Below are positions 903 to 33,457 of a DNA stretch of 37,001 nt, one piece after another (position 1 is the first letter of the stretch; each line of letters starts with the position of its first letter). Origin of the DNA: a virus (Duplodnaviria > Caudoviricetes); IMG/VR virus record IMGVR_UViG_3300012348_000089, positions 1 through 37,001 of that record; one strand, written 5' to 3'. The notes under the pieces were generated by a model. That model was given only the letters and a program-made list of their open reading frames with translations. It searched no databases and was not told the DNA's origin. Both the position numbers and the translations under genes were made by a program.

Positions 903-2924
903 ATGCGGACACGGTTATATTTAGAGGGCATTAACTTAGACTTATACGAAGATATAGATACTACGTTTACTTATGTTATTGACGATGTAAAAGAGTTTGG
1001 AACTCGTAATACTTCATTTAGTAAAACAATAACTATTCCAGGTAATGCAGTAAACAATAAAGCATTTGGGCATATCTTTAACTTAGGTAGTGCAAATGAT
1101 TATACAAACCAAGAGCCAAACATAGGCTACAACTTTAATGCTTCTGTTTCTGCGCGTTGCGCTGTGTTTATAGACCAAGTGCAAGTTTTTAAGGGTTCGC
1201 TAAGACTAATTGAAATAATAGATACAGCAGGTGAGTTAGAGTACCAGTGTTTCGTATTTGGTGAATTAGGTGGATTGTTTTATCAGATAGGCAACAAGCG
1301 TTTGACTGATTTAAATTTTAGTGAGTACGATTTAAATTACAGTTATGCTAATATTATTTCAAGTTGGGATAATATTAACGGCTCAGGAGTTTATTTTCCT
1401 TTGACAGACTACGGAAATGTATCTACAAATAAAGAGGATTTCCAATATACAGCATTTAGACCTGCTTTGTATGTTAAAGAGTATTTAGAAAAGATATTTT
1501 CTCAAACCGATTATACAATTGAAAGTAATTTTTTATTAAGTAGCGTATTTGACAATTTAGTAATTCCGCATAACCAAAAAGAATTAACAAAATATTCAAG
1601 CAACTTTTTTCAAGGCGCACCAGCGTTTACTACTTACAATAGTACGGGCAATCAAATACAATTAACATTTACAGCATCTGCATTAGGTTCATTTACTTTG
1701 CAATCTAGTAATACCGCAATTAGAAACGATGGTTCAACTATAACTACTAATTTAGTTTTCATTGTAACGGGATTATGGGCTCAAGGTGGTAGTGCTACAT
1801 TTAATCTTAGAAAGAATGGCGCAATAATAGCTTCTACTTTTTTAGGTAGCGCATTTAGCGGCAGGTTCTTTAGTAGTACAATAACAGCTGCTAACGAATC
1901 AATCGCTACTAATGATGTTATTACTTTGACTTTAGATTGGTCAACTTCGCAGCCTTACAATTTGCAAGTAAGCGCAGGATCTATTAACTTTCAATCTTCT
2001 ACGCCTACTAGAGTAAGGGTTAATCTAGGCGATGAGATTATTATAAACGATACGATACCACAAGGTATATTCCAAAAAGACTTTGTGCTAAGTATTATAA
2101 AAATGTTTAACCTTTATGTTTACGAATCTTCTTTTGATGAAAAAAAGTTAATAATAACACCTTATGTTAATTTTTATTCAAATGAACAACCACTTAATTG
2201 GACTGATAAGATAGACCGTTCAAGTCCTATTAAGCAAATACCAATGAGTGAATTAAATGCAAGGTACTATCAATATAAGTTTAGAGAAGATAATGATTTT
2301 TACAATGAAGATTATCGTAAAGCATTTAACGAGGGTTACGGAGATAGAATATACGATACAGAGTTTGAGTTTAGTAATGAAACGGATGAACTGCAATTAA
2401 TATTTGCTGCATCGGTATTATACCAAAACGTTGGAACGGATAAAATATATCCTGCTATTTACAAGTTATCTGGAACGACAGAAACGCCAATGGATCATGT
2501 AATGAGAATTGGTAGGGCAAAAAAAATAATTTGTAATCAATACGATATACTTGATACTATAACTGTACTTGGCAGTCCTACAGCTTACGGTTATGTAGGT
2601 CATTTAGATGACCCAAACAATCCAACATCGGATATTAATTTTGGTGCACCAGAAGTATTGCAGTTTACACCAACGGGGCAATATCCAGCGGCTAACTTGT
2701 TTAATAGTTTCCATTCTGGCTACATATCTGAAATTACCGATAAAGACAGTAAGTTAGTAGTAGCCTATGCTTACTTAAATACAGTTGACATAATGAACTT
2801 AAATTTTAGTAAGTTAATTTATGTTGATGGAGTGTTATTTAGATTAAACAAAATTAACGAGTACAATCCGACTGATTTAGGTACTACTCAAATACAATTA
2901 CTCAAAGTAATAAACTTAATATAA
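903..2924 (+). CDS. tail hub/baseplate structural protein
   Basis: 673 aa; N-terminal SFSKTITIPG motif typical of siphovirus tail proteins; lies between Dit-like gene and TMP. Confidence 0.65.
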   Translation: MRTRLYLEGINLDLYEDIDTTFTYVIDDVKEFGTRNTSFSKTITIPGNAVNNKAFGHIFNLGSANDYTNQEPNIGYNFNASVSARCAVFIDQVQVFKGSLRLIEIIDTAGELEYQCFVFGELGGLFYQIGNKRLTDLNFSEYDLNYSYANIISSWDNINGSGVYFPLTDYGNVSTNKEDFQYTAFRPALYVKEYLEKIFSQTDYTIESNFLLSSVFDNLVIPHNQKELTKYSSNFFQGAPAFTTYNSTGNQIQLTFTASALGSFTLQSSNTAIRNDGSTITTNLVFIVTGLWAQGGSATFNLRKNGAIIASTFLGSAFSGRFFSSTITAANESIATNDVITLTLDWSTSQPYNLQVSAGSINFQSSTPTRVRVNLGDEIIINDTIPQGIFQKDFVLSIIKMFNLYVYESSFDEKKLIITPYVNFYSNEQPLNWTDKIDRSSPIKQIPMSELNARYYQYKFREDNDFYNEDYRKAFNEGYGDRIYDTEFEFSNETDELQLIFAASVLYQNVGTDKIYPAIYKLSGTTETPMDHVMRIGRAKKIICNQYDILDTITVLGSPTAYGYVGHLDDPNNPTSDINFGAPEVLQFTPTGQYPAANLFNSFHSGYISEITDKDSKLVVAYAYLNTVDIMNLNFSKLIYVDGVLFRLNKINEYNPTDLGTTQIQLLKVINLI

Positions 2925-4684
2925 TGGCAGAAGAAATTATAGGACTCAAGGTAGTAGTAAACGGGCAAGAAAAGGTAGTTGGTTCGGTTGGTGAGATGCG
3001 TAAGCTACTTAAAGAAGCGCAGTTTGAAGCGTTAAAGCTCTCACAACAGTTTGGTGAAACATCAGCAGAGGCTTTAGCGGCAGCTAAGGGTATCGCAATG
3101 ATGAAAGACCAAATTGCAGACGCTTCGGAAAGAGTGGACTTGTTTGACCCAGGAAAGAAGTTTCAAGTATTTGCCAATGCGGTATCGGCAGCAGGTGGGG
3201 GTATTGCAGCATTGCAGGGCGCTATGGGGTTATTGGGTAGTGAGTCCGAAGATGTACAAAAGGCTTTGCTGAAAGTTCAGTCCGCTCTAGCTTTATCTCA
3301 AGGGCTTTCAACTATTGCAGATGCACAAAAAGACTTTGAAAGATTAAGTGCTGTTATTCAGCAAACTACGCTATTTACTAAAGCAAATGACTTAGCCAAT
3401 AAAGCAACAGCGGGTTCTTTGCGGTTTATGGGCATTAGTGCAGAGGCTTCAAGCGTTGGGTTTAAAGTATTAAAAGGCGCTATCGCGGCAACTGGAATAG
3501 GTGTATTGGTTATACTATTGGGTGAAGCGGTTGCAGCGTTTGAGAACTACACAAGTGCAGCCGAAGATGCAGCTAAGGCTCAGGATGAATTTAACAAAAA
3601 GACGGTTGAATATGCAGATGCTCAGTTAAAGGGGGAGTTAGAGATATTAGATAGAAAGCAAAAGGAGTTGGTTTCTGAGGCTAAAGCTAGAGGTGCTAAC
3701 GAGGCTGAAATATTTGAGATTGAGCAATCAGGTAGACGCTTGAGATTGGCGGCATTAAACAGATATTATGAGCAAGTAAAAGGGGCAGATGATAAAGCGG
3801 CTACTGAGGTTATAAAGCAGATTAAAGATACTGAAACAGATATAACAGTTGCTCAAAACGAAGAACGTGCAAGGCGTAGAAGTAAGCAAATAGCCGACAA
3901 TGAAGCGGCGTTTATTGAGCAGCAAGAAGCATTAAAGAAAAGCATTAACGCTCAGTATCAATTAGAACTAGATGCGTACAACCAAAGAAAGGCGTTAAGG
4001 GATAGAGAGCAAGCTGAGATAATTGACGCAAGTAAAACGCTGACAGAGCAACGTGCAGAGCAAAAGATTAAAGACGAAGAACAGCGCAAGGCAGATGAAG
4101 AGGCTTTAGATAGAATGCGTGAAAGCCAATTAGGCAAAAGCATTGAGGCTCAGGTTGCCGCAAACGCTGCAAGACTAGCAAACGAAAAGCAAACATCAGA
4201 TGCAAACATAGCTATTGCAACTGCCGAAGCAGAATCTAAACGTGTTCTACTTGAAACAACCGCATCGGCTTTAACTAATCTTAGCTTAGTTGCAGGGCGT
4301 GAAACAGTTGCGGGTAAAGCGTTGGCTATCGCATCGTCTATTATAAATACTTATCAAGGTGCTACTAAGGCTTTGGCTCAAGGAGGTATTGCGGGGCCGA
4401 TTGCAGCAGCTGGTATTATTGCAGCTGGGTTAGCATCGGTTAAGCAAATAGTATCAGTTAAAGTACCAGGTGCATCAGGTGGCACTCCGTCGGTGGCAGC
4501 CCCTACACTCAATGCAGGTTCACCACTTAACCCTACAACCATTGCATCTAATCAAGTAACATTAGACCAAAGAAGTATTAACGCTATGGGCAATAGAGCT
4601 ATTAGGGCATACGTTGTAGAGTCTGAAATATCAGCAGCACAACAAAAGGTTAGACGAATACAAAGGCAGACTACGTTTGGGTAA
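2924..4684 (+). CDS. tape measure protein
   Basis: 586 aa Ala/Gln/Glu-rich helical protein with hydrophobic Gly/Ala segments (AIAATGIGVLVILLG; AGPIAAAGIIAAG). Confidence 0.8.
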   Translation: MAEEIIGLKVVVNGQEKVVGSVGEMRKLLKEAQFEALKLSQQFGETSAEALAAAKGIAMMKDQIADASERVDLFDPGKKFQVFANAVSAAGGGIAALQGAMGLLGSESEDVQKALLKVQSALALSQGLSTIADAQKDFERLSAVIQQTTLFTKANDLANKATAGSLRFMGISAEASSVGFKVLKGAIAATGIGVLVILLGEAVAAFENYTSAAEDAAKAQDEFNKKTVEYADAQLKGELEILDRKQKELVSEAKARGANEAEIFEIEQSGRRLRLAALNRYYEQVKGADDKAATEVIKQIKDTETDITVAQNEERARRRSKQIADNEAAFIEQQEALKKSINAQYQLELDAYNQRKALRDREQAEIIDASKTLTEQRAEQKIKDEEQRKADEEALDRMRESQLGKSIEAQVAANAARLANEKQTSDANIAIATAEAESKRVLLETTASALTNLSLVAGRETVAGKALAIASSIINTYQGATKALAQGGIAGPIAAAGIIAAGLASVKQIVSVKVPGASGGTPSVAAPTLNAGSPLNPTTIASNQVTLDQRSINAMGNRAIRAYVVESEISAAQQKVRRIQRQTTFG

Positions 4685-18176: not shown

Positions 18177-18268
18177 AAATTAAGGCTTTAAAGGTTTGGT
18201 GTATTTATTTTGTTGACAATTTAAAAAGTATATTAAACAATATTATATGCGTATTGCGTCAATCGGCG

Positions 18269-18279
18269 TGTTGGGCGCA
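18269..18279 (-). mobile_element. attC-like R'' half site
   Basis: Minus strand TGCGCCCAACA (RYYYAAC) 1 nt after the stop of ORF 18281-18553; exact reverse complement of 18562-18572. Confidence 0.55.
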
Positions 18280-18280
18280 A

Positions 18281-18553
18281 TTAAGCGACCACATCCAATC
18301 CGACATAATCCTCAATCAAAAAACCATCATTCCAGAAAAACAGACTACCCTTTTTTAGTATCGTTTCTTTATGCGGTTCTGTTGAACGTGGCGTTCCGTA
18401 ATGTGCTGTTTCAAGTTTTACATCAACTTTTCGTCTTTGAATCAAACCTTCGCACCTCACACCATCGGAGTTGATGAAATAAACCTTATCACCTTCTTTA
18501 ACCTTTTTGCCATTAAAAAGGGTAGCCGTTTTTTGTTGAAATAAATTGAACAT
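18281..18553 (-). CDS. hypothetical protein in a cassette-like unit
   Basis: 90 aa ORF tightly bounded by GTTGGGC and GCCCAAC. Confidence 0.7.
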   Translation of the reverse strand: MFNLFQQKTATLFNGKKVKEGDKVYFINSDGVRCEGLIQRRKVDVKLETAHYGTPRSTEPHKETILKKGSLFFWNDGFLIEDYVGLDVVA

Positions 18554-18564
18554 AATTTAACTGC

Positions 18565-18695
18565 GCCCAACAATGTGTTTATGCAAGCGGGGCTGAAACG
18601 CTTTGAATAAACATTAGCACTTAATTTATATTTGTGCATCTATGAAGCGGTAGTGCTAATAATCCCCGCCTGACATAAACACTTGACCGTTAGCG
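18565..18695 (-). mobile_element. integron attC-like recombination site
   Basis: 131-bp imperfect palindrome CGCTAAC...GTTGGGC with an unpaired spacer, 9-bp stem, single extrahelical base and further stems. Confidence 0.65.
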
Positions 18696-18770
18696 GTAAT
18701 TTTGACACCAATATTCTAAATGTTCTTCGTGTTCTTTTTGACAATATTCTGCTATTTCTTTTGGTGTCAT
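18690..18770 (-). CDS. mini ORF (26 aa) ending in the attC-like R'' box
   Basis: MTPKEIAEYCQKEHEEHLEYWCQNYR; its TAA lies inside CGCTAAC. Confidence 0.45.
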   Translation of the reverse strand: MTPKEIAEYCQKEHEEHLEYWCQNYR

Positions 18771-19003
18771 TTTGTTAAGGTTTAAAGGTTCTTATATAAT
18801 AATCTTTACAAGTTTGTTCGGCTATTGGAATATCTTGACCTCCATCCCAATACGCTTCCTCTATTTGCTCACGCTCCATTTGTAGGGCTTGTTGAAACTC
18901 CTCTTGCCATGCAGTACTAAATTGGTTTAAGTTGTTATCTATTTGCTGCATTAGCCATTGTACGGCGGTTAACTTCTTTTCCATTTGTTAAGGTTTAAAG
19001 GTT
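18771..19003. repeat. 20-bp direct repeats flanking one gene
   Basis: TTTGTTAAGGTTTAAAGGTT at 18771-18790 and 18984-19003. Confidence 0.9.
18775..18984 (-). CDS. hypothetical phage protein (TAVQWL...MEREQI family)
   Basis: 69 aa; motif pattern common in small genes of Bacteroidota phages. Confidence 0.75.
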   Translation of the reverse strand: MEKKLTAVQWLMQQIDNNLNQFSTAWQEEFQQALQMEREQIEEAYWDGGQDIPIAEQTCKDYYIRTFKP

Positions 19004-19359
19004 AATTCGGTGTTGGTTAAAGCGAAGTATAGGTTTTGAAGTTGGTGGAGATATTGAATAGGATTCCCAATTAACTGTTGTTTTTTAAAAGTAGAAAATT
19101 GAAAGCCGCTTGGGTAACATTCGTTTAGGTAATAAAATTCAACAACATCTTGATGCTGCCTAAATGCTTGATGATATATACTCCAATTAAACCCGCACTT
19201 ATATAATATTTCAGGGGTAAGGGGGATGGGTTGATAAAACTCTACGCCGATGCCCTTTTCTATTGTGCCAATATCATTAGCATTAATGACGGCTGAATGA
19301 TTAGCTCCTTTCGGGTAATATAAATTCCCAACTCTCAATTCATTTGCTAAAATTGCCAT
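18988..19359 (-). CDS. hypothetical phage protein (ELRVGN...HQLQNLYFALT family)
   Basis: 123 aa; PIPLTPEIL and LHQLQNLYFALT motifs. Confidence 0.75.
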   Translation of the reverse strand: MAILANELRVGNLYYPKGANHSAVINANDIGTIEKGIGVEFYQPIPLTPEILYKCGFNWSIYHQAFRQHQDVVEFYYLNECYPSGFQFSTFKKQQLIGNPIQYLHQLQNLYFALTNTELTFKP

Positions 19360-19793
19360 AAAAATGATTTATAAGTTTTTAATCTTCCTCTTTTTAATGC
19401 TGAAAATGCCGTAGGTATTCCGCCTACTGCTTTAGCAGCTTCTGTATATGAATTAAATTTTTTAATAAAAACTCCGTTTAAGTCATATTGCGAAACAGAA
19501 ACTTTGTTTTTTGCGCTTATTCCCCTTTTAGCCAAACTTTGCTTTTCTTTTTGCTTGTCAGTATAATCATACTTTCTGTGACATGAGGGGCAAAGCATAA
19601 TATAATTGTTTCTGTTTTTTGCATAATCCTTGCCCTTTAGCAAAGCCCATTCAAATCTTTTTGGATTAACTGATTCGCAGTTTTCATTTTCGCATTTATT
19701 AGCCTTCCCGTGATGGTAGGATATCCAATTATGTATTCTAAAATACTCTTTATCGTGTTTCATGATACAAATATACAAATATTTTCATTTGCT
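19339..19793. mobile_element. endonuclease insertion bounded by 10-bp direct repeats
   Basis: TTCATTTGCT at 19339-19348 and 19784-19793. Confidence 0.65.
19347..19763 (-). CDS. HNH homing endonuclease with NUMOD1-like C-terminus
   Basis: CENENC...LCPSCHRKYD; VSQYDLNGVFIKKFNSYTEAA; probable start at ATG 19763. Confidence 0.75.
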   Translation of the reverse strand: MKHDKEYFRIHNWISYHHGKANKCENENCESVNPKRFEWALLKGKDYAKNRNNYIMLCPSCHRKYDYTDKQKEKQSLAKRGISAKNKVSVSQYDLNGVFIKKFNSYTEAAKAVGGIPTAFSALKRGRLKTYKSFLWQF

Positions 19794-19828
19794 TGTATCA
19801 TGTTATTGATTTTTTAGTAATCCCTTCC

Positions 19829-20362
19829 TTATATATATTTAAGCAATATTTCTTTTTGTTTTTCTAATTCAGCATCCCTAGCAGCAGCCCAAGCAGCAGC
19901 CCCAGAAGCAGCCCAAGCAGCAGCCCCAGAAGCAGCCCCAGAAGCAACCCCAGCAGCCCTAGCAGCAGCCCAAGTAGCATACCAAGCAACAGCCCTAGCG
20001 GCATCACAAGCAGCATCCCCAGCGGCATCACAAGCAGCAGCCCTAGCAGTATCTAATTCTTCTAAAGTAGCCTCTCCATTGGCATATTTTCTGCTTACGG
20101 CAATAGCATTAACAGCCCTATCATCGTTAGCTAAATGAACTACGCTTTCTGCAAAATCACAAGCCATCAGTCTTATTTCTCTATCACATCCTTCAACTGC
20201 TCGTAATGCCCATATTGCATCTTTCACGCCATTAGACTCAAGAATAGTTCGGATTGGTAGCGGTTCGTCATCTGGTTCTGTTTTGTTTAGAAACAAAAGC
20301 AACTTTGCCCACCCTTCTGTACAAGGGATATGCTGTTTGATTTTGGTTAGTGTAGTTAACAT
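19829..20362 (-). CDS. Ala-rich repeat protein (Imm5-like)
   Basis: PCTEGW...RLMACDFAE N-terminal domain followed by AAWAA/AACDA repeats encoded by 12-bp tandem units. Confidence 0.7.
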   Translation of the reverse strand: MLTTLTKIKQHIPCTEGWAKLLLFLNKTEPDDEPLPIRTILESNGVKDAIWALRAVEGCDREIRLMACDFAESVVHLANDDRAVNAIAVSRKYANGEATLEELDTARAAACDAAGDAACDAARAVAWYATWAAARAAGVASGAASGAAAWAASGAAAWAAARDAELEKQKEILLKYI

Positions 20363-20389
20363 GGTTTGGTTTGTTTAAATTAAAAAATA

Positions 20390-20563
20390 CTAATCCCCAT
20401 CAGTAATATAAAGCATCACAAAACCCACCCAACTTAAAAGTATAAGCATAATTTTTACAGCAGGATGAACTTCCCGTGCAGACAAAGAATTTTGTTTCTT
20501 AAAAAGACGGATTGACAATAATCCTCCAATTACCCAAAACAAAAGAAATAGTAATGCACACAT
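20390..20563 (-). CDS. small membrane protein
   Basis: Two TM segments; ATG 20563 preferred over TTG 20584, which abuts a terminator. Confidence 0.5.
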   Translation of the reverse strand: MCALLFLLFWVIGGLLSIRLFKKQNSLSAREVHPAVKIMLILLSWVGFVMLYITDGD

Positions 20564-20582
20564 AATAATTAATTTTTTACCC

Positions 20583-20613
20583 AAAATGCCCCGCTACTTT
20601 TTAATAGCGAGGC
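20583..20613 (-). terminator. intrinsic terminator
   Basis: Minus strand GCCTCGCTA-loop-TAGCGGGGC followed by ATTTT. Confidence 0.55.
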
Positions 20614-20635
20614 TAGTGTATTGGTGTAGGATTGG

Positions 20636-20821
20636 TTACTGTAACTCAAAATATGTACCCCACTCCATTTTTTCATCAGTAGATAAGCAAGTCATTTGCT
20701 CGCAACTTTCTTCATTTTCTTTAGTTGATATAAAAATATCAAACCCATAATTTCTAAACCAATTAGCAAACAATTCTTGCTGTTCAGAACTGTCAAAAGA
20801 TATTTGAATTAAGGTTTCCAT
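20636..20821 (-). CDS. acidic hypothetical protein
   Basis: 61 aa ORF with an A-rich start region. Confidence 0.6.
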   Translation of the reverse strand: METLIQISFDSSEQQELFANWFRNYGFDIFISTKENEESCEQMTCLSTDEKMEWGTYFELQ

Positions 20822-20963
20822 TTTAATTGTATTTAATGTTATTTAATGAATTTTTTTCGTAGTACTGTGCGGTAATTTGAACTAGTATTGTTTTCATTTC
20901 GTTTTATTTAAAGCGTTAATTAATAACAGCTTTATCGCTGCTTTGATTGGGAGGGGTTTGCTT

Positions 20964-21170
20964 TTATTCATTTACAAAAGATTTTAGGGTATCAAATAAT
21001 TCTAACGTAGTGTTGTAAATATCCGTATGCTTAAACCCTAGCTTATCAAAAAAAGTGCATGACTTGTTCGCTATTGCATACATAATTTCAATTTCCTTTT
21101 GGCTCTCCAACGTAATCTCTAACGTTACGGGCTTAAATTCTTCGGGTTGTTGTTTTACTGTTACTTTCAT
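20964..21170 (-). CDS. hypothetical phage protein
   Basis: 68 aa; FKPVTLEITLES motif. Confidence 0.65.
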   Translation of the reverse strand: MKVTVKQQPEEFKPVTLEITLESQKEIEIMYAIANKSCTFFDKLGFKHTDIYNTTLELFDTLKSFVNE

Positions 21171-21171
21171 G

Positions 21172-21333
21172 TTATTTGGTTTTTAGTTTTCTATTTGGTT
21201 TAGCTTCATCCTTTGCTTTGACATAAGCCTCTAAGCCTTTATCGTAGCTAGTAAAATAGCCTAAATGTTTTCGCTTGCCGTTTACTACTATCATAACCTT
21301 GTATGATCCGTTTTTAATTTTTTCAATGCTCAT
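21172..21333 (-). CDS. stand-alone AP2-like DNA-binding protein (53 aa)
   Basis: GSYKVMIVVNGKRKHLGYFTSYDKGLEAY; first gene of the leftward unit. Confidence 0.65.
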   Translation of the reverse strand: MSIEKIKNGSYKVMIVVNGKRKHLGYFTSYDKGLEAYVKAKDEAKPNRKLKTK

Positions 21334-21351
21334 TTGGTTTGTTTAAGGATT

Positions 21352-21359
21352 CAAATATA
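21352..21359 (-). promoter_or_regulatory. Bacteroidota -7 promoter element for the leftward operon
   Basis: TATATTTG (TAnnTTTG) 18 nt upstream of ATG 21333, in an AT-rich divergent region. Confidence 0.6.
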
Positions 21360-21432
21360 CAAATAGTTTTGATATAAAAAAATATTTTTTACTATTAATA
21401 AAAATAGTACATTCGTGCAAAATTAATTATTT

Positions 21433-21585: not shown

Positions 21586-21653
21586 AAAATAATTAAAAAA
21601 TATTTTGTCAATTCAAAACAACCTATTAACTTCACATTCTAAACTTAAAAAAC

Positions 21654-24258: not shown

Positions 24259-24939
24259 ATGTCAATAAAAAATAAGTTTACTGTAAAATCAATAGATAAT
24301 TTTATTTGTAAAGATTGGCTATTAAACAAGCATTATGCAAAAAGAATACCTCCAATTGAATATGCTTTTGGCTTATTTGAGGGTTCTATATTACAAGGCG
24401 TTACCACCTATGGCACACCTGTCGCTAATTCATTGAGAGAAATATTTTTACCAAATTACAAATTGATTGAGTTAAATAGATTGGTTGTAAACGAAGGACT
24501 AGAAAAAAATGCATTATCTTTTTTTGTTAGCGAATCATTAAATATTATACCTAAACCTTACGCAATAGTATCTTATGCAGACACTTCGCATAATCATCAT
24601 GGGTATATTTATCAAGCCACAAATTGGATTTATACTGGTTTGTCTGCTGAATTTAAGGATTATATGGTTAAGGGTATGGAACATTTGCATGGAGCATCTG
24701 TATTTGATTTAAGCAGAGGCAAGGAAAATAGGGTTGAATGGCTAAAAGAAAAATTTGGCGATAAGTTATACATGAAAGATAGGCCTAGAAAACACCGTTA
24801 TTTTTACTTTATTGGCTCAAAAACGGATTGTAATAAAATGAAAAAACTGCTCCCTTACCCAATTGAAGCCTATCCAAAAGGGGATAATAAAAGATACGAT
24901 GCAAGTTATAAGCCGATTACACAACAGCAATTATTTTAA
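24259..24939 (+). CDS. Mom-like DNA adenine modification enzyme
   Basis: KHYAKR, ELNRL and VSYAD..H.GYIYQATNWIYTG motifs. Confidence 0.75.
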   Translation: MSIKNKFTVKSIDNFICKDWLLNKHYAKRIPPIEYAFGLFEGSILQGVTTYGTPVANSLREIFLPNYKLIELNRLVVNEGLEKNALSFFVSESLNIIPKPYAIVSYADTSHNHHGYIYQATNWIYTGLSAEFKDYMVKGMEHLHGASVFDLSRGKENRVEWLKEKFGDKLYMKDRPRKHRYFYFIGSKTDCNKMKKLLPYPIEAYPKGDNKRYDASYKPITQQQLF

Positions 24940-30292: not shown

Positions 30293-30537
30293 CCGAACAA
30301 GATAGACAAGTGCTTCAAGCCAATGAGGGTCATATGTTAACTGCTAAAGATGGATGGGTGCAGCAGGTTTATGATTTAACTAAGCTGCATGAAATTTATG
30401 AGCGCAATGTTGCTCACTACCCATTAACAACATGGTGTCCGTCTTGTGTAATTAAGTTTATGCAAAGGTTGGGTAGTTGGTGGGATGGGGTGAAGTTAGC
30501 AGAACAATCACAAACAAAACAGAAACGCCGCAAATGA
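30283..30537 (+). CDS. small CxxC protein
   Basis: TWCPSCV motif. Confidence 0.65.
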   Translation: MAITEQDRQVLQANEGHMLTAKDGWVQQVYDLTKLHEIYERNVAHYPLTTWCPSCVIKFMQRLGSWWDGVKLAEQSQTKQKRRK

Positions 30538-31553
30538 ATATACTAGCATTATCGTCAACAACCTCAGGTGTAGGGTATCACCGTATTATAATGCCGCTTA
30601 CCTACATGATGCAGGATAAGCCAAATGATTCTGTATTAATTACTAATATCATTGACGAAGAAACACTAAGCCGTAAACATTGGGACGTGGTTGTAATGAA
30701 TCGGAGTGTATCGTTTCCTGCAGAACGAATGGTTAAGCTGCGTGAGAAGTACGGTTTTAAATTAATAGTTGATAACGATGACCATTGGGTTTTAGATCCG
30801 CATCATAATCTTGCAGACCATTACGCCGAAAGCAAAATAGCCGAACAAATTATAAGCTACATTGAAATAGCTGACATTTGCACGGTAACGCACGAAAGAC
30901 TAGCAGCTGAGGTTTACAAGCATAACAAGAATGTTTATATTTTACCGAATGGTTTGCCTTATGGCGACGGTCAATTCTCGGCGCATAAGCAACCAAGTGA
31001 AAGAGTAAGATTGTTTTGGTCTGGTAGTGATACTCACGCTCAAGATATATCAATACTTAGAAACCCAATGAACCGAGTTTGGTCGGACTTTGATTTGAGG
31101 TGCAAGGTTAAAACGGTTATGGCGGGGTATAGTGAACGTTCAAAACCAGTTTGGGACGTAATGGCATCTGCTTTTACTCAAGCATTAAGGTTTGAGTCAA
31201 CCATTTACCAAATGTCAATGCCTGACAGATACATGGCAGCTTATTGTGATTCGGATATATCTGTTATACCTTTGCTCAATACTAGGTTTAACTCAATGAA
31301 GTCTAACCTGAAAGTATTAGAGGCCGCAACTAAACGTAATCCAGTCGTGGTTAGTATGGTTGACCCATATTTAGATATGCCCGTTTGTTATGTACGTACA
31401 CAGCAGTATTGGTACAGATGGGTAAAGGAACTGGTAAACGATGCGGCAATGCGTGAAGAAAAAGGCAATGAGTTGTATGAGTTCTGCAATAAGCATTTTA
31501 ACATAAACACAATAAACCAAAGAAGATATGAAATCTATAAAGGGTGTATGTAA
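30534..31553 (+). CDS. GT-B glycosyltransferase
   Basis: Start at ATG 30534 (ATGA overlap); GVGYHRI, DNDD, WSGSDTH, PL...FN.MKSNLKVLEA. Confidence 0.8.
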   Translation: MNILALSSTTSGVGYHRIIMPLTYMMQDKPNDSVLITNIIDEETLSRKHWDVVVMNRSVSFPAERMVKLREKYGFKLIVDNDDHWVLDPHHNLADHYAESKIAEQIISYIEIADICTVTHERLAAEVYKHNKNVYILPNGLPYGDGQFSAHKQPSERVRLFWSGSDTHAQDISILRNPMNRVWSDFDLRCKVKTVMAGYSERSKPVWDVMASAFTQALRFESTIYQMSMPDRYMAAYCDSDISVIPLLNTRFNSMKSNLKVLEAATKRNPVVVSMVDPYLDMPVCYVRTQQYWYRWVKELVNDAAMREEKGNELYEFCNKHFNINTINQRRYEIYKGCM

Positions 31554-32944: not shown

Positions 32945-33457
32945 ATGAGAAGAAAGTTAGAACCGCCAAAGGGCGTACCAACTAAAGGAATAGGTTTAAA
33001 AGGAGAAGATAAACCTAATACTTCGCCAACCAAGCAGCATTATGTTGGCGTTAATCAGTTAATTGATTTGTTCTATGAATATTGCGAAGATGTTAAAGCA
33101 AACCCGATACTTGAGGAAGACTATGTAGGCGGGGCAGGAATAAAGGTTGAAAAGAAAAAACAAAGACCATACACCAAACAAGGCTTTTTCGTGTTTGTAA
33201 AGCATAGAACGGGGTTTAATGTATCTCACTATTTTAAGCCATCGCAGCAAAATGATTACTCAGCCTACAAAGATGTTATTGAAGAAATTGAGCTAACCAT
33301 TGCAGACAATCAAATTAGCGGTGGAATGGTTGGAATATTTAACGCACGTATGTCATCACTTATGCAAGGGTTAGTTGAAAAGACTGAAAACAAGAACGAT
33401 AATAAAATTACCGTAACAGTAGAATATGCCGACAGAAGTAAAGGTAGTATTGAATAA
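32945..33457 (+). CDS. terS: terminase small subunit
   Basis: RPYTKQGF...QISGGMVGIFNA motif (P22 gp3-like); overlaps the TerL start. Confidence 0.75.
   Translation: MRRKLEPPKGVPTKGIGLKGEDKPNTSPTKQHYVGVNQLIDLFYEYCEDVKANPILEEDYVGGAGIKVEKKKQRPYTKQGFFVFVKHRTGFNVSHYFKPSQQNDYSAYKDVIEEIELTIADNQISGGMVGIFNARMSSLMQGLVEKTENKNDNKITVTVEYADRSKGSIE

Follow-up and report, generated by a model that had tools for sequence, protein, structure and literature searches.

How can a small gene enter a phage genome at an exact position when the phage encodes no enzyme to put it there? Mosaics of small accessory genes in phages are usually ascribed to homologous or illegitimate recombination. In the window, i.e., the whole 37,001-nucleotide stretch of DNA analyzed here, a first-pass annotation made from the sequence alone had pointed to a hairpin resembling an integron attC site next to a small gene. 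Based on comparisons with relatives, we read this stretch with considerable confidence as a one-cassette array, the cassette being a 419-bp unit of hairpin plus gene that was likely moved by an integron-like site-specific recombination system of Bacteroidota. The borders of the unit, its AAC junction, the reversed direction of its gene, the strand bias, and the lack of a recombinase gene all emerge from sequence comparison. The features of the locus are listed in Table 1.

Table 1. Features of the cassette locus in the window
Feature	Coordinates	Strand	Remarks
Leftward block of small genes	18281..21359	-	Cassette at its far end; converges on late genes
Mobile unit, 419 bp	18271..18689	+	From the TT of the docking-site crossover to the G of the crossover at the hairpin's far end
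90-aa cargo gene	18281..18553	-	Starts 11 nt after GTTGGGC
attC-like hairpin	18569..18691	-	Minus (coding) strand predicted to fold and recombine
Crossover triplet AA|C of the hairpin (plus strand, G|TT)	18689..18691	-	Sister-phage insertion point
Cassette core adjoining the hairpin	18562..18571	+	Complements 18270-18279; R'' in classical polarity
Cassette core at the docking-site junction	18270..18280	+	G|TT at 18270/18271
Terminal site, inferred attI-like double-stranded docking site	18254..18272	+	No hairpin
19-nt motif beyond the docking site	18213..18231	-	Common to L011/L043; candidate accessory binding site or promoter
Mini ORF, 26 aa	18690..18770	-	Stop is the TAA of CGCTAAC; ends in a cassette-type core

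RESULTS

The locus lies in a tailed-phage genome without an integrase

The window is a complete tailed-phage genome of ~36.9 kb with a 55-nt end overlap and direct terminal repeats, and it contains genes for portal, capsid, terminase, helicase, and a RecT-like annealing protein. On the minus strand, motifs of the form TAnnTTTG, which we take to be the Bacteroidetes promoter consensus, are located at 21359 and 19775, each ahead of a gene of the leftward block, whose small genes span 18281-21333. Among named genomes, relatives of the cargo gene occur in Plebeiibacterium and, weakly, in Niabella only. Based on the two motifs and these relatives, we infer that the host belongs to the Bacteroidota.

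The first-pass annotation had described the phage as lacking an integrase, and our searches bear this out. No integrase was present among 59 phage ORFs scanned against PHROGs, the phage genome gave no PF00589 match, and tblastn of 20 array-type recombinases against it returned nothing better than an E value of 0.28. The proposal that a recombinase acts in trans agrees with the lack of an encoded enzyme in this phage. The locus had no match among 50,697 annotated phages.

Several other features of this genome were noted. A run of 12-base repeats at 19846-20073 gives a 177-aa protein (phrog_18326) its alanine-rich AAWA-type repeat, a repeated promoter-like motif precedes two leftward genes (21340-21369 and 19756-19785), and an inverted 26-nt repeat lies in a divergent control region (21594-21619). 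A Mom-like DNA modification gene and a glycosyltransferase gene (24259-24939 and 30477-31553) have possible anti-restriction roles. A short GCCAAC...GTTGGC inverted repeat at 33012-33060 is probably due to chance, because it is too short and lies inside a core gene, that for the terminase small subunit. Within a 123-aa gene, 19016-19061 and 19189-19234 are the sole match of many contigs from other phages and have fixed exit points; these are further mosaic joints without hairpins.

The minus strand contains an imperfect hairpin with AAC and GTT ends

Read on the minus strand, the hairpin measures 123 nt from AAC to GTT and 131 nt with the 7-mers. The AAC at 18691-18689 is followed by a 6-nt spacer and an outer stem in which GTGTTTATG (18682-18674) pairs with CATAAACAC (18583-18575). 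After a single unpaired T at 18673, a second stem pairs CAGGCGGGG (18672-18664) with CCCCGCTTG (18592-18584), the inner stem is formed by ATTAGCACT/AGTGCTAAT, and a 3-nt spacer lies ahead of the GTT at 18571-18569. As folded DNA, the minus strand is predicted to reach -26.1 kcal/mol (z -4.28; matched by none of 200 shuffles) and the plus strand -23.7 kcal/mol (z -3.81). The 131-bp imperfect hairpin with AAC/GTT ends of the first-pass annotation is therefore found with every element named there and folds far better than shuffled sequence. It is also the sole match within 37 kb of a strand-symmetric hairpin detector, for which the background was five matches in 20 simulated 37-kb sequences.

In being an imperfect hairpin of 57-141 bp with conserved structure rather than sequence, the element corresponds to an attC site. 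Its ends had been described as bounded by RYYYAAC, a consensus that CGCTAAC does not fit; this hairpin end, GTTAGCG, departs from GTTRRRY, and the other end fits (GCCCAAC = RYYYAAC). While attC sites have two to three extrahelical bases on the R''-L'' arm and 5- to 6-nt spacers on each arm, the spacers in the window are 6 and 3 nt.

Relatives place the exchange at the AAC in front of the hairpin

A sister phage (L008/G001) is syntenic with the window phage over most of the genome. In L008, the mini ORF region is 98% and the hairpin 100% identical to the window, and 530 bp of extra sequence lie between them, exactly at the AAC; the flanks of the extra unit in L008/G001 are 98-100% identical to the window. 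The 530-bp unit has a hairpin of its own, matching cores, and a gene for a 135-aa WDGH-domain protein, and the sister phage therefore has two hairpins versus one in the window. Only an AAC-to-AAC event yields the window from L008, because a GTT-to-GTT removal would leave the other hairpin.

The cassette also occurs in a second genomic background. Window positions 18270-18696 (427 bp) are 100% identical in L052, an unrelated phage-like contig of 36.5 kb that has nothing else in common with the window over 12 kb. There, the unit sits within a row of eight detected hairpins, and the window-type cassette is followed by a gene that by eye is methyltransferase-like. The homology of the window to L001-L006 stops at 18270.

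We also compared the window with contigs assembled in other studies, a comparison that concerns assembled contigs, as none of 24 runs contained half of the stretch. Contigs of four studies depart from the window at 18270, 18688, 18692, and 18696. The X1 and X4 contigs run on into other hairpins from 18688; one X1 contig has a further unit of ~390 nt at the same AAC, and two X4 contigs depart there. One X6 contig joins 18272 to 18772, i.e., both the cassette and the mini ORF are absent, and the short side of this joint is 43 nt. The X7 flanks are those of L052 and were not counted as independent. The first-pass annotation had suggested looking for different ORFs in this slot in relatives, and the 135-aa gene unit in L008 and the X1 unit at the same AAC are such cases.

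Across the family, we considered 71 cassette pairs that are at least 75% alike and that are not independent of one another. The front hairpin alone was common to 22 pairs, the rear sequence alone to 0, both to 1, and neither to 48. Between cultured Polaribacter phages, Freya_5 corresponds to Freya_10 minus 903-4100, and the joint in Freya_5 falls inside an AAC that connects the start of a hairpin with a site directly ahead of the integrase gene. Exceptions were also observed: the front hairpin differs in 5 of the 16 cassette pairs that are at least 90% alike, and neither flank is common in 7 of 35 near-identical hairpin pairs. Based on these exceptions, exchange at the hairpin's other end or homologous recombination also occurs.

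These comparisons locate the junction ahead of the hairpin, at AA|C on the coding strand; they also define the borders of the unit and make the locus an unusually clean comparative proof of mobility. Because the exchange point is the coding-strand AAC, the hairpin travels with the gene behind it, and because the junction lies ahead of the hairpin, the cargo gene is antisense to the classical attC polarity. A crossover at AA|C on one favored strand is a property of attC sites that, judged by comparison together with the strand bias described below, the window hairpin has as well; a classical cassette gene lies in sense upstream of its own attC, whereas the window gene is antisense.

The first-pass annotation had instead placed the junction at the coding-strand G|TT after the hairpin and assigned the hairpin to the mini ORF. 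In its full form, this explanation holds that the hairpin is a classical attC site of classical polarity that belongs to the mini ORF and is cut at G|TT by a host IntI, while the downstream site is a decayed attC. It is consistent with the length, the AAC/GTT ends, and the matching cores, with the existence of cargo-gene copies that have a different front hairpin, and with the recombination by IntI1 of five of six phage attC sites described in the accessible text of PMC9892861. However, the insertion in L008, the linkage of 22 versus 0, and the Freya junction all point to the coding-strand AAC, and L008 by itself largely refutes a cut at G|TT. Moreover, P12002L_attC1, the site from a Polaribacter phage for which, according to the same part of PMC9892861, IntI1 failed, by eye has the same 6/3 spacer layout as the window. 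We consider this explanation the least probable of those weighed here.

The 90-aa gene is flanked by covarying cores

The exchange at the coding-strand AAC implies a unit in which the hairpin precedes the 90-aa gene, i.e., in plus-strand order, the antisense gene followed by the hairpin. One nucleotide past the stop of this gene, an 11-nt sequence is the exact complement of the upstream core, verifying the earlier claim that the trailing sequence of the gene exactly complements its leading core. After five duplicates had been dropped, 29 of 53 entries of the cargo family had a GTT core ahead of the gene and a complementary AAC core behind it, and 3 more had both with a 1-nt loss; the remaining entries are truncated by contig ends or have lost their borders. 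Across the 29 homologs, the two cores covary: position 1 is G-C in 13, A-T in 13, and G-T in 3, and position 2 is G-C in 13 and T-A in 15. The same holds for cassettes with many different genes, in which the cores around a gene pair at 4.82 of 6 positions versus 3.04 when permuted (54 consecutive cassettes), while good pairing of the cores that flank a hairpin was limited to 3 of 98 cases. The agreement between leading and trailing core that characterizes attC cassettes is thus present as a covarying 11-nt match. Together with the identical unit in L052, the covarying cores support the earlier suggestion that the 90-aa gene is a gene cassette.

The cargo gene has 72 homologs, and the relatives of its protein come from 47 metagenome, 15 viral, and 2 genome loci. 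We found no PHROGs or Pfam family for it. The protein is predicted to adopt a small beta-rich fold (pLDDT 90.9), for which the best structural matches are weak (Z 3.0-3.7, to YopX-like and Tudor/BAH-like chains); no match reaches a Z of 4, and all Atlas matches are under 0.9.

The mini ORF on the other side of the hairpin has no matching partner core ahead of it. Its pattern was found elsewhere in the sister phage only, and in L008 it is broken by a stop codon. This ORF is likely what remains of an earlier cassette.

Hairpins of this family have a fixed polarity

Using a detector that scores both strands alike, we found 103 hairpins in 60 loci after 8 duplicate loci had been dropped; one of the 103 calls, inside a gene in L058, is probably false. 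In coding-strand orientation, the spacer after AAC is longer than the other spacer in 97 of the 103, and the surplus on this cut arm is mostly 2-5 nt. An alignment of 52 family members has two-sided changes at 16 of 18 stem pairs; a single T-A pair never varies, and a G.T pair persists in 50 members. Of the alignment cells, 94.9% are paired, a value inflated by the choice of members with a pairing detector. A lack of covariation, which the first-pass annotation had named as an observation that would count against it, is therefore not what we see. Between the boxes of 97 hairpins, bases are present on neither arm in 62, on the cut arm only in 21, on both arms in 11, and on the other arm only in 3, and no extrahelical base is conserved across the set. 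The description of the window hairpin as having one extrahelical base and several stem pairs consequently holds for this copy, in which they are present, but across the family, neither the unpaired T nor the inner stem is conserved.

The two strands are not equivalent. Of 97 hairpins, 79 have their better fold on the coding strand, and in the phage-type set, G.T outnumbers A.C on the coding strand by 153 versus 41. At 102 phage-type hairpins, 88 genes are reversed and 3 are sense, with 8 ties and 3 unpolarised cases (L099 and L100 were excluded from these direction counts and from the core-pairing counts). Chromosomal hairpins have genes in the classical direction in 22 of 24 cases, and across 22 chromosomal hairpins, the G.T:A.C ratio is 37:10 on the non-coding strand. 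Because in chromosomes it is the non-coding strand that carries the bias, the G.T bias tracks the polarity of the DNA hairpin and not the mRNA.

This strand bias also bears on the possibility that the hairpin is an RNA element of the mRNA, i.e., a terminator or a processing or translation signal, and that the mosaicism at its edge is incidental. The position between two genes and the best fold on the coding strand with G.T(U) pairs would suit such an element, but the bias on the non-coding strand of chromosomes would not, and an RNA element cannot explain covarying complementary cores 300 nt apart. Moreover, no terminator pattern is present at the hairpin, and an Rfam scan gave no family at the site. 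An RNA element is unlikely as the primary role of the hairpin, and we give this explanation of the locus as a whole very little credence.

We noted further arrangements in this family. In L052:4933-5870, two adjacent cassettes have hairpins that are 96% identical and agree in the leader as far as the ATG and in the tail core, yet their genes are unrelated, a possible clue to how new cassettes arise. In L101:2069-2315 (L001), L043:2718-3020, and L260:3791-4100, genes start in the hairpin loop, and the 3' arm of the hairpin is translated. L060 has two oppositely directed arrays on one contig (636-2777 and 5891-7545) with a common 98% identical hairpin and different flanks.

The array ends at a conserved site that does not fold

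Behind the cargo gene, the array ends at a site in which, on the minus strand, an AAC and a W-T-W box lie 6 nt apart and which does not fold (z 0.16 to 0.34). The same 19 nt end an array behind a different cassette in L011/L043 and, with one mismatch, in L025. We collected 21 terminal sites without a hairpin-like start; a T at position 8 after AAC is present in 17 of the 21 and in 6 of 7 recombinase-adjacent sites (background, 27%). Among 1,664 AAC contexts, the window site ranks 2 with a matrix of 18 other terminal sites and 1,092 with a matrix of the seven recombinase-adjacent phage sites. Relative to seven chromosomal attI candidates, obtained from only 7 of 19 chromosomal loci, it is at the 99.3rd percentile. 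The 19-nt motif beyond the docking site overlaps a plus-strand match to the consensus TTGACA-17-AACAAT.

As judged by this recurrence behind other cassettes, the terminal site belongs to a conserved end-of-array class and likely serves as the fixed docking site of the array. The first-pass annotation had taken it for a degenerate attC, a broken site, and the conserved docking class is the better reading. In a separate degenerate search for terminal sites, 31 of the 33 stretches returned were chance matches in coding DNA and only L025 and L043 were real; in another search, two of three matches were chance matches in coding DNA.

The terminal site also enters into a further explanation, according to which the unit was placed once, either through insertion at an attG-like secondary site or through homologous recombination with an array-bearing donor phage, in a lineage without a working platform. 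The single hairpin, the missing recombinase, and the encoded RecT-like annealing protein are consistent with such a relic, as are the low rank of the terminal site when scored with recombinase-adjacent sites and the ability of IntI to use loose genomic sites, which is described in the part of bioRxiv 2022.09.11.507474 available to us. On the other hand, close relatives have at least three alleles at the same AAC (the window, L008, and X1; two more X4 contigs depart there), and one contig is without the unit. In addition, the junctions have only ~4 nt in common, which would be too little for annealing-driven exchange, and other phages carry the terminal site behind different cassettes. A single placement is improbable in our view.

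Related recombinases accompany arrays in chromosomes and in other phages

Related recombinases were present in 20 of 151 Bacteroidota genomes, and hairpins scoring at least 15 were found nearby in 9 of 18 fetched recombinase regions, some downstream and some upstream of the enzyme gene. The array-linked chromosomal enzymes have Phage_integrase and Phage_int_SAM_4 domains. In Plebeiibacterium marinum, scaffold L099 is a hairpin array in which the cargo-gene homolog is reversed relative to the host genes. The recombinases of this species match the IntI model TIGR02249 in two pieces around the IntI insertion and remain below the cut-off, with 204.5 of 265 bits for the best match in the genome, which also argues against a classical attC cut by a host IntI. 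A complete integron has an intI with the IntI-specific insertion beside attI; the window phage has no recombinase.

Of the 80 top-ranking viral loci that encode a recombinase of this kind, 17 have a hairpin within 4 kb. Among 12 phage loci examined, 7 have a reversed array whose terminal AAC site, which is not a hairpin, lies 44-90 nt ahead of a gene for a 266- to 289-aa recombinase. A separate set of 17 viral records with the gene family, the hairpin, or the terminal site gave no PF00589 match, although only 1 of these records is at least 90% complete. In a quick tree with many open forks, the phage and chromosomal recombinases fall into the same group and are partly mixed; given this mixing and the open forks, no donor can be named. 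These data suggest that the enzyme is likely an Xer-like recombinase lacking the IntI insertion rather than an IntI.

A 295-aa recombinase abutting the P. marinum array was set aside as the array enzyme, its closest relatives being IS91 transposase partners. The P. marinum array contig overlaps the contig of this IS91-type recombinase right after a hairpin GTT (L099:4572-4647/L117:1100-1180), and in L156:4306-5526, an IS91 transposase lies in an array and adjoins a 687-aa recombinase; IS91-like elements may target hairpin arrays. This 687-aa protein (L156:7644-9707) heads a chromosomal array and has a C-terminal tyrosine recombinase domain preceded by an apparent second, partial SAM-like module.

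DISCUSSION

A model for the gain and exchange of cassettes

In the mechanism that we propose for this locus, the coding strand would fold into the hairpin when single-stranded, and an Xer-like tyrosine recombinase without the IntI insertion would cut at the AA|C of the longer-spacer arm. The resulting circle would be joined either to the double-stranded terminal site or to the AAC of another hairpin, so that new units would enter at the tail of the leftward block with their hairpin in front and could be transcribed by read-through from upstream promoters of the phage itself. The enzyme would be supplied in trans, by the recombinase of a host chromosomal array or by a co-infecting phage that encodes one.

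We tentatively extend this to a broader picture, which may well prove wrong, in which Bacteroidota phages share a cassette market built on integron-like machinery of their hosts. Enzyme-less phages would keep a docking site and trade cassettes with unrelated phages and with chromosomal arrays, and the placement of genes on opposite strands would act as a polarity firewall. If so, host cassettes in a phage array would go unread, and phage cassettes in a host array would be silent until picked up again.

Two unrelated genomes with the identical cassette, exact gains at a single trinucleotide in sister phages, and a chromosomal relative together reveal a defined site-specific route to phage mosaicism. 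The locus is the smallest possible version of such an array, i.e., one docking site, one cassette, and no enzyme, and for this reason readily serves as a substrate for finding out which recombinase is active, which strand it uses, and whether recognition of a folded single strand depends on the IntI insertion.

Comparison with integrons and other known systems

As far as our literature search extended, with most subscription journals outside it, the published phage precedent consists of integrase-less attC clusters only, and we found no account of reversed phage arrays or of an enzyme group of this type; nor did the search return Bacteroidota chromosomal hairpin arrays beside XerA-like recombinases. 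Such chromosomal arrays belong to the same hairpin family as the phage-borne ones, with the same strand bias and recombinase group, but differ from them in the classical direction of their genes and in having an adjacent enzyme gene. The portion of PMC9024848 at hand lists one complete integron in the Bacteroidetes and, in a survey of complete genomes, almost none there, and because of this, an integron-like system relying on another enzyme may have gone unnoticed in this phylum. In the main text of PMC8776804, to the extent available, the Freya integrase is interpreted as pointing to a temperate lifestyle, and the term "integron" is not used.

The closest phage counterparts are the CALINs of Qi et al. 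(2023), whose accessible text (PMC9892861) describes 17 integrase-less attC clusters in phages. Like the window, they have attC-type sites without an integrase, including Polaribacter phage P12002L attC1, and DNA methyltransferase cargo compares with the methyltransferase-like gene in L052. That set required at least two sites, whereas the window has one hairpin; single attC sites can be true according to the consulted part of PMC9024848. Divergent P12002L sites are mentioned in the accessible text of PMC9892861, and systematic reversed polarity, a docking site, a non-IntI enzyme, and identical cassettes across unrelated phages are not mentioned there. The attG sites, as presented in the available part of bioRxiv 2022.09.11.507474, resemble the proposed docking site in being double-stranded targets outside a classical integron with a single cleavage; they are, however, loose GWT positions in genomes, while the window site belongs to a conserved class that ends phage arrays.

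With integrons, as described in the sections of PMC5027507 that we drew on, the window has in common a predicted single-stranded hairpin of 57-141 bp with an AAC/GTT R box, an L box, and an unpaired spacer, an AA|C crossover on the favored strand, complementary cassette ends, and a putative fixed insertion site that is not a hairpin. In classical attC sites, according to the same sections, cleavage at AA|C falls on the bottom strand, with the extrahelical bases located on the opposite arm. Unlike in integrons, the window gene is antisense to the hairpin polarity, with the hairpin in front and the docking site at the tail; the spacers of the window family are strongly unequal, and no extrahelical bases are conserved on the other arm; and the recombinases of the family lack the IntI insertion and fall below the TIGR02249 cut-off, with no enzyme encoded in the phage genome. 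The locus thus works like an integron, and it is not a canonical member of the IntI/attC system.
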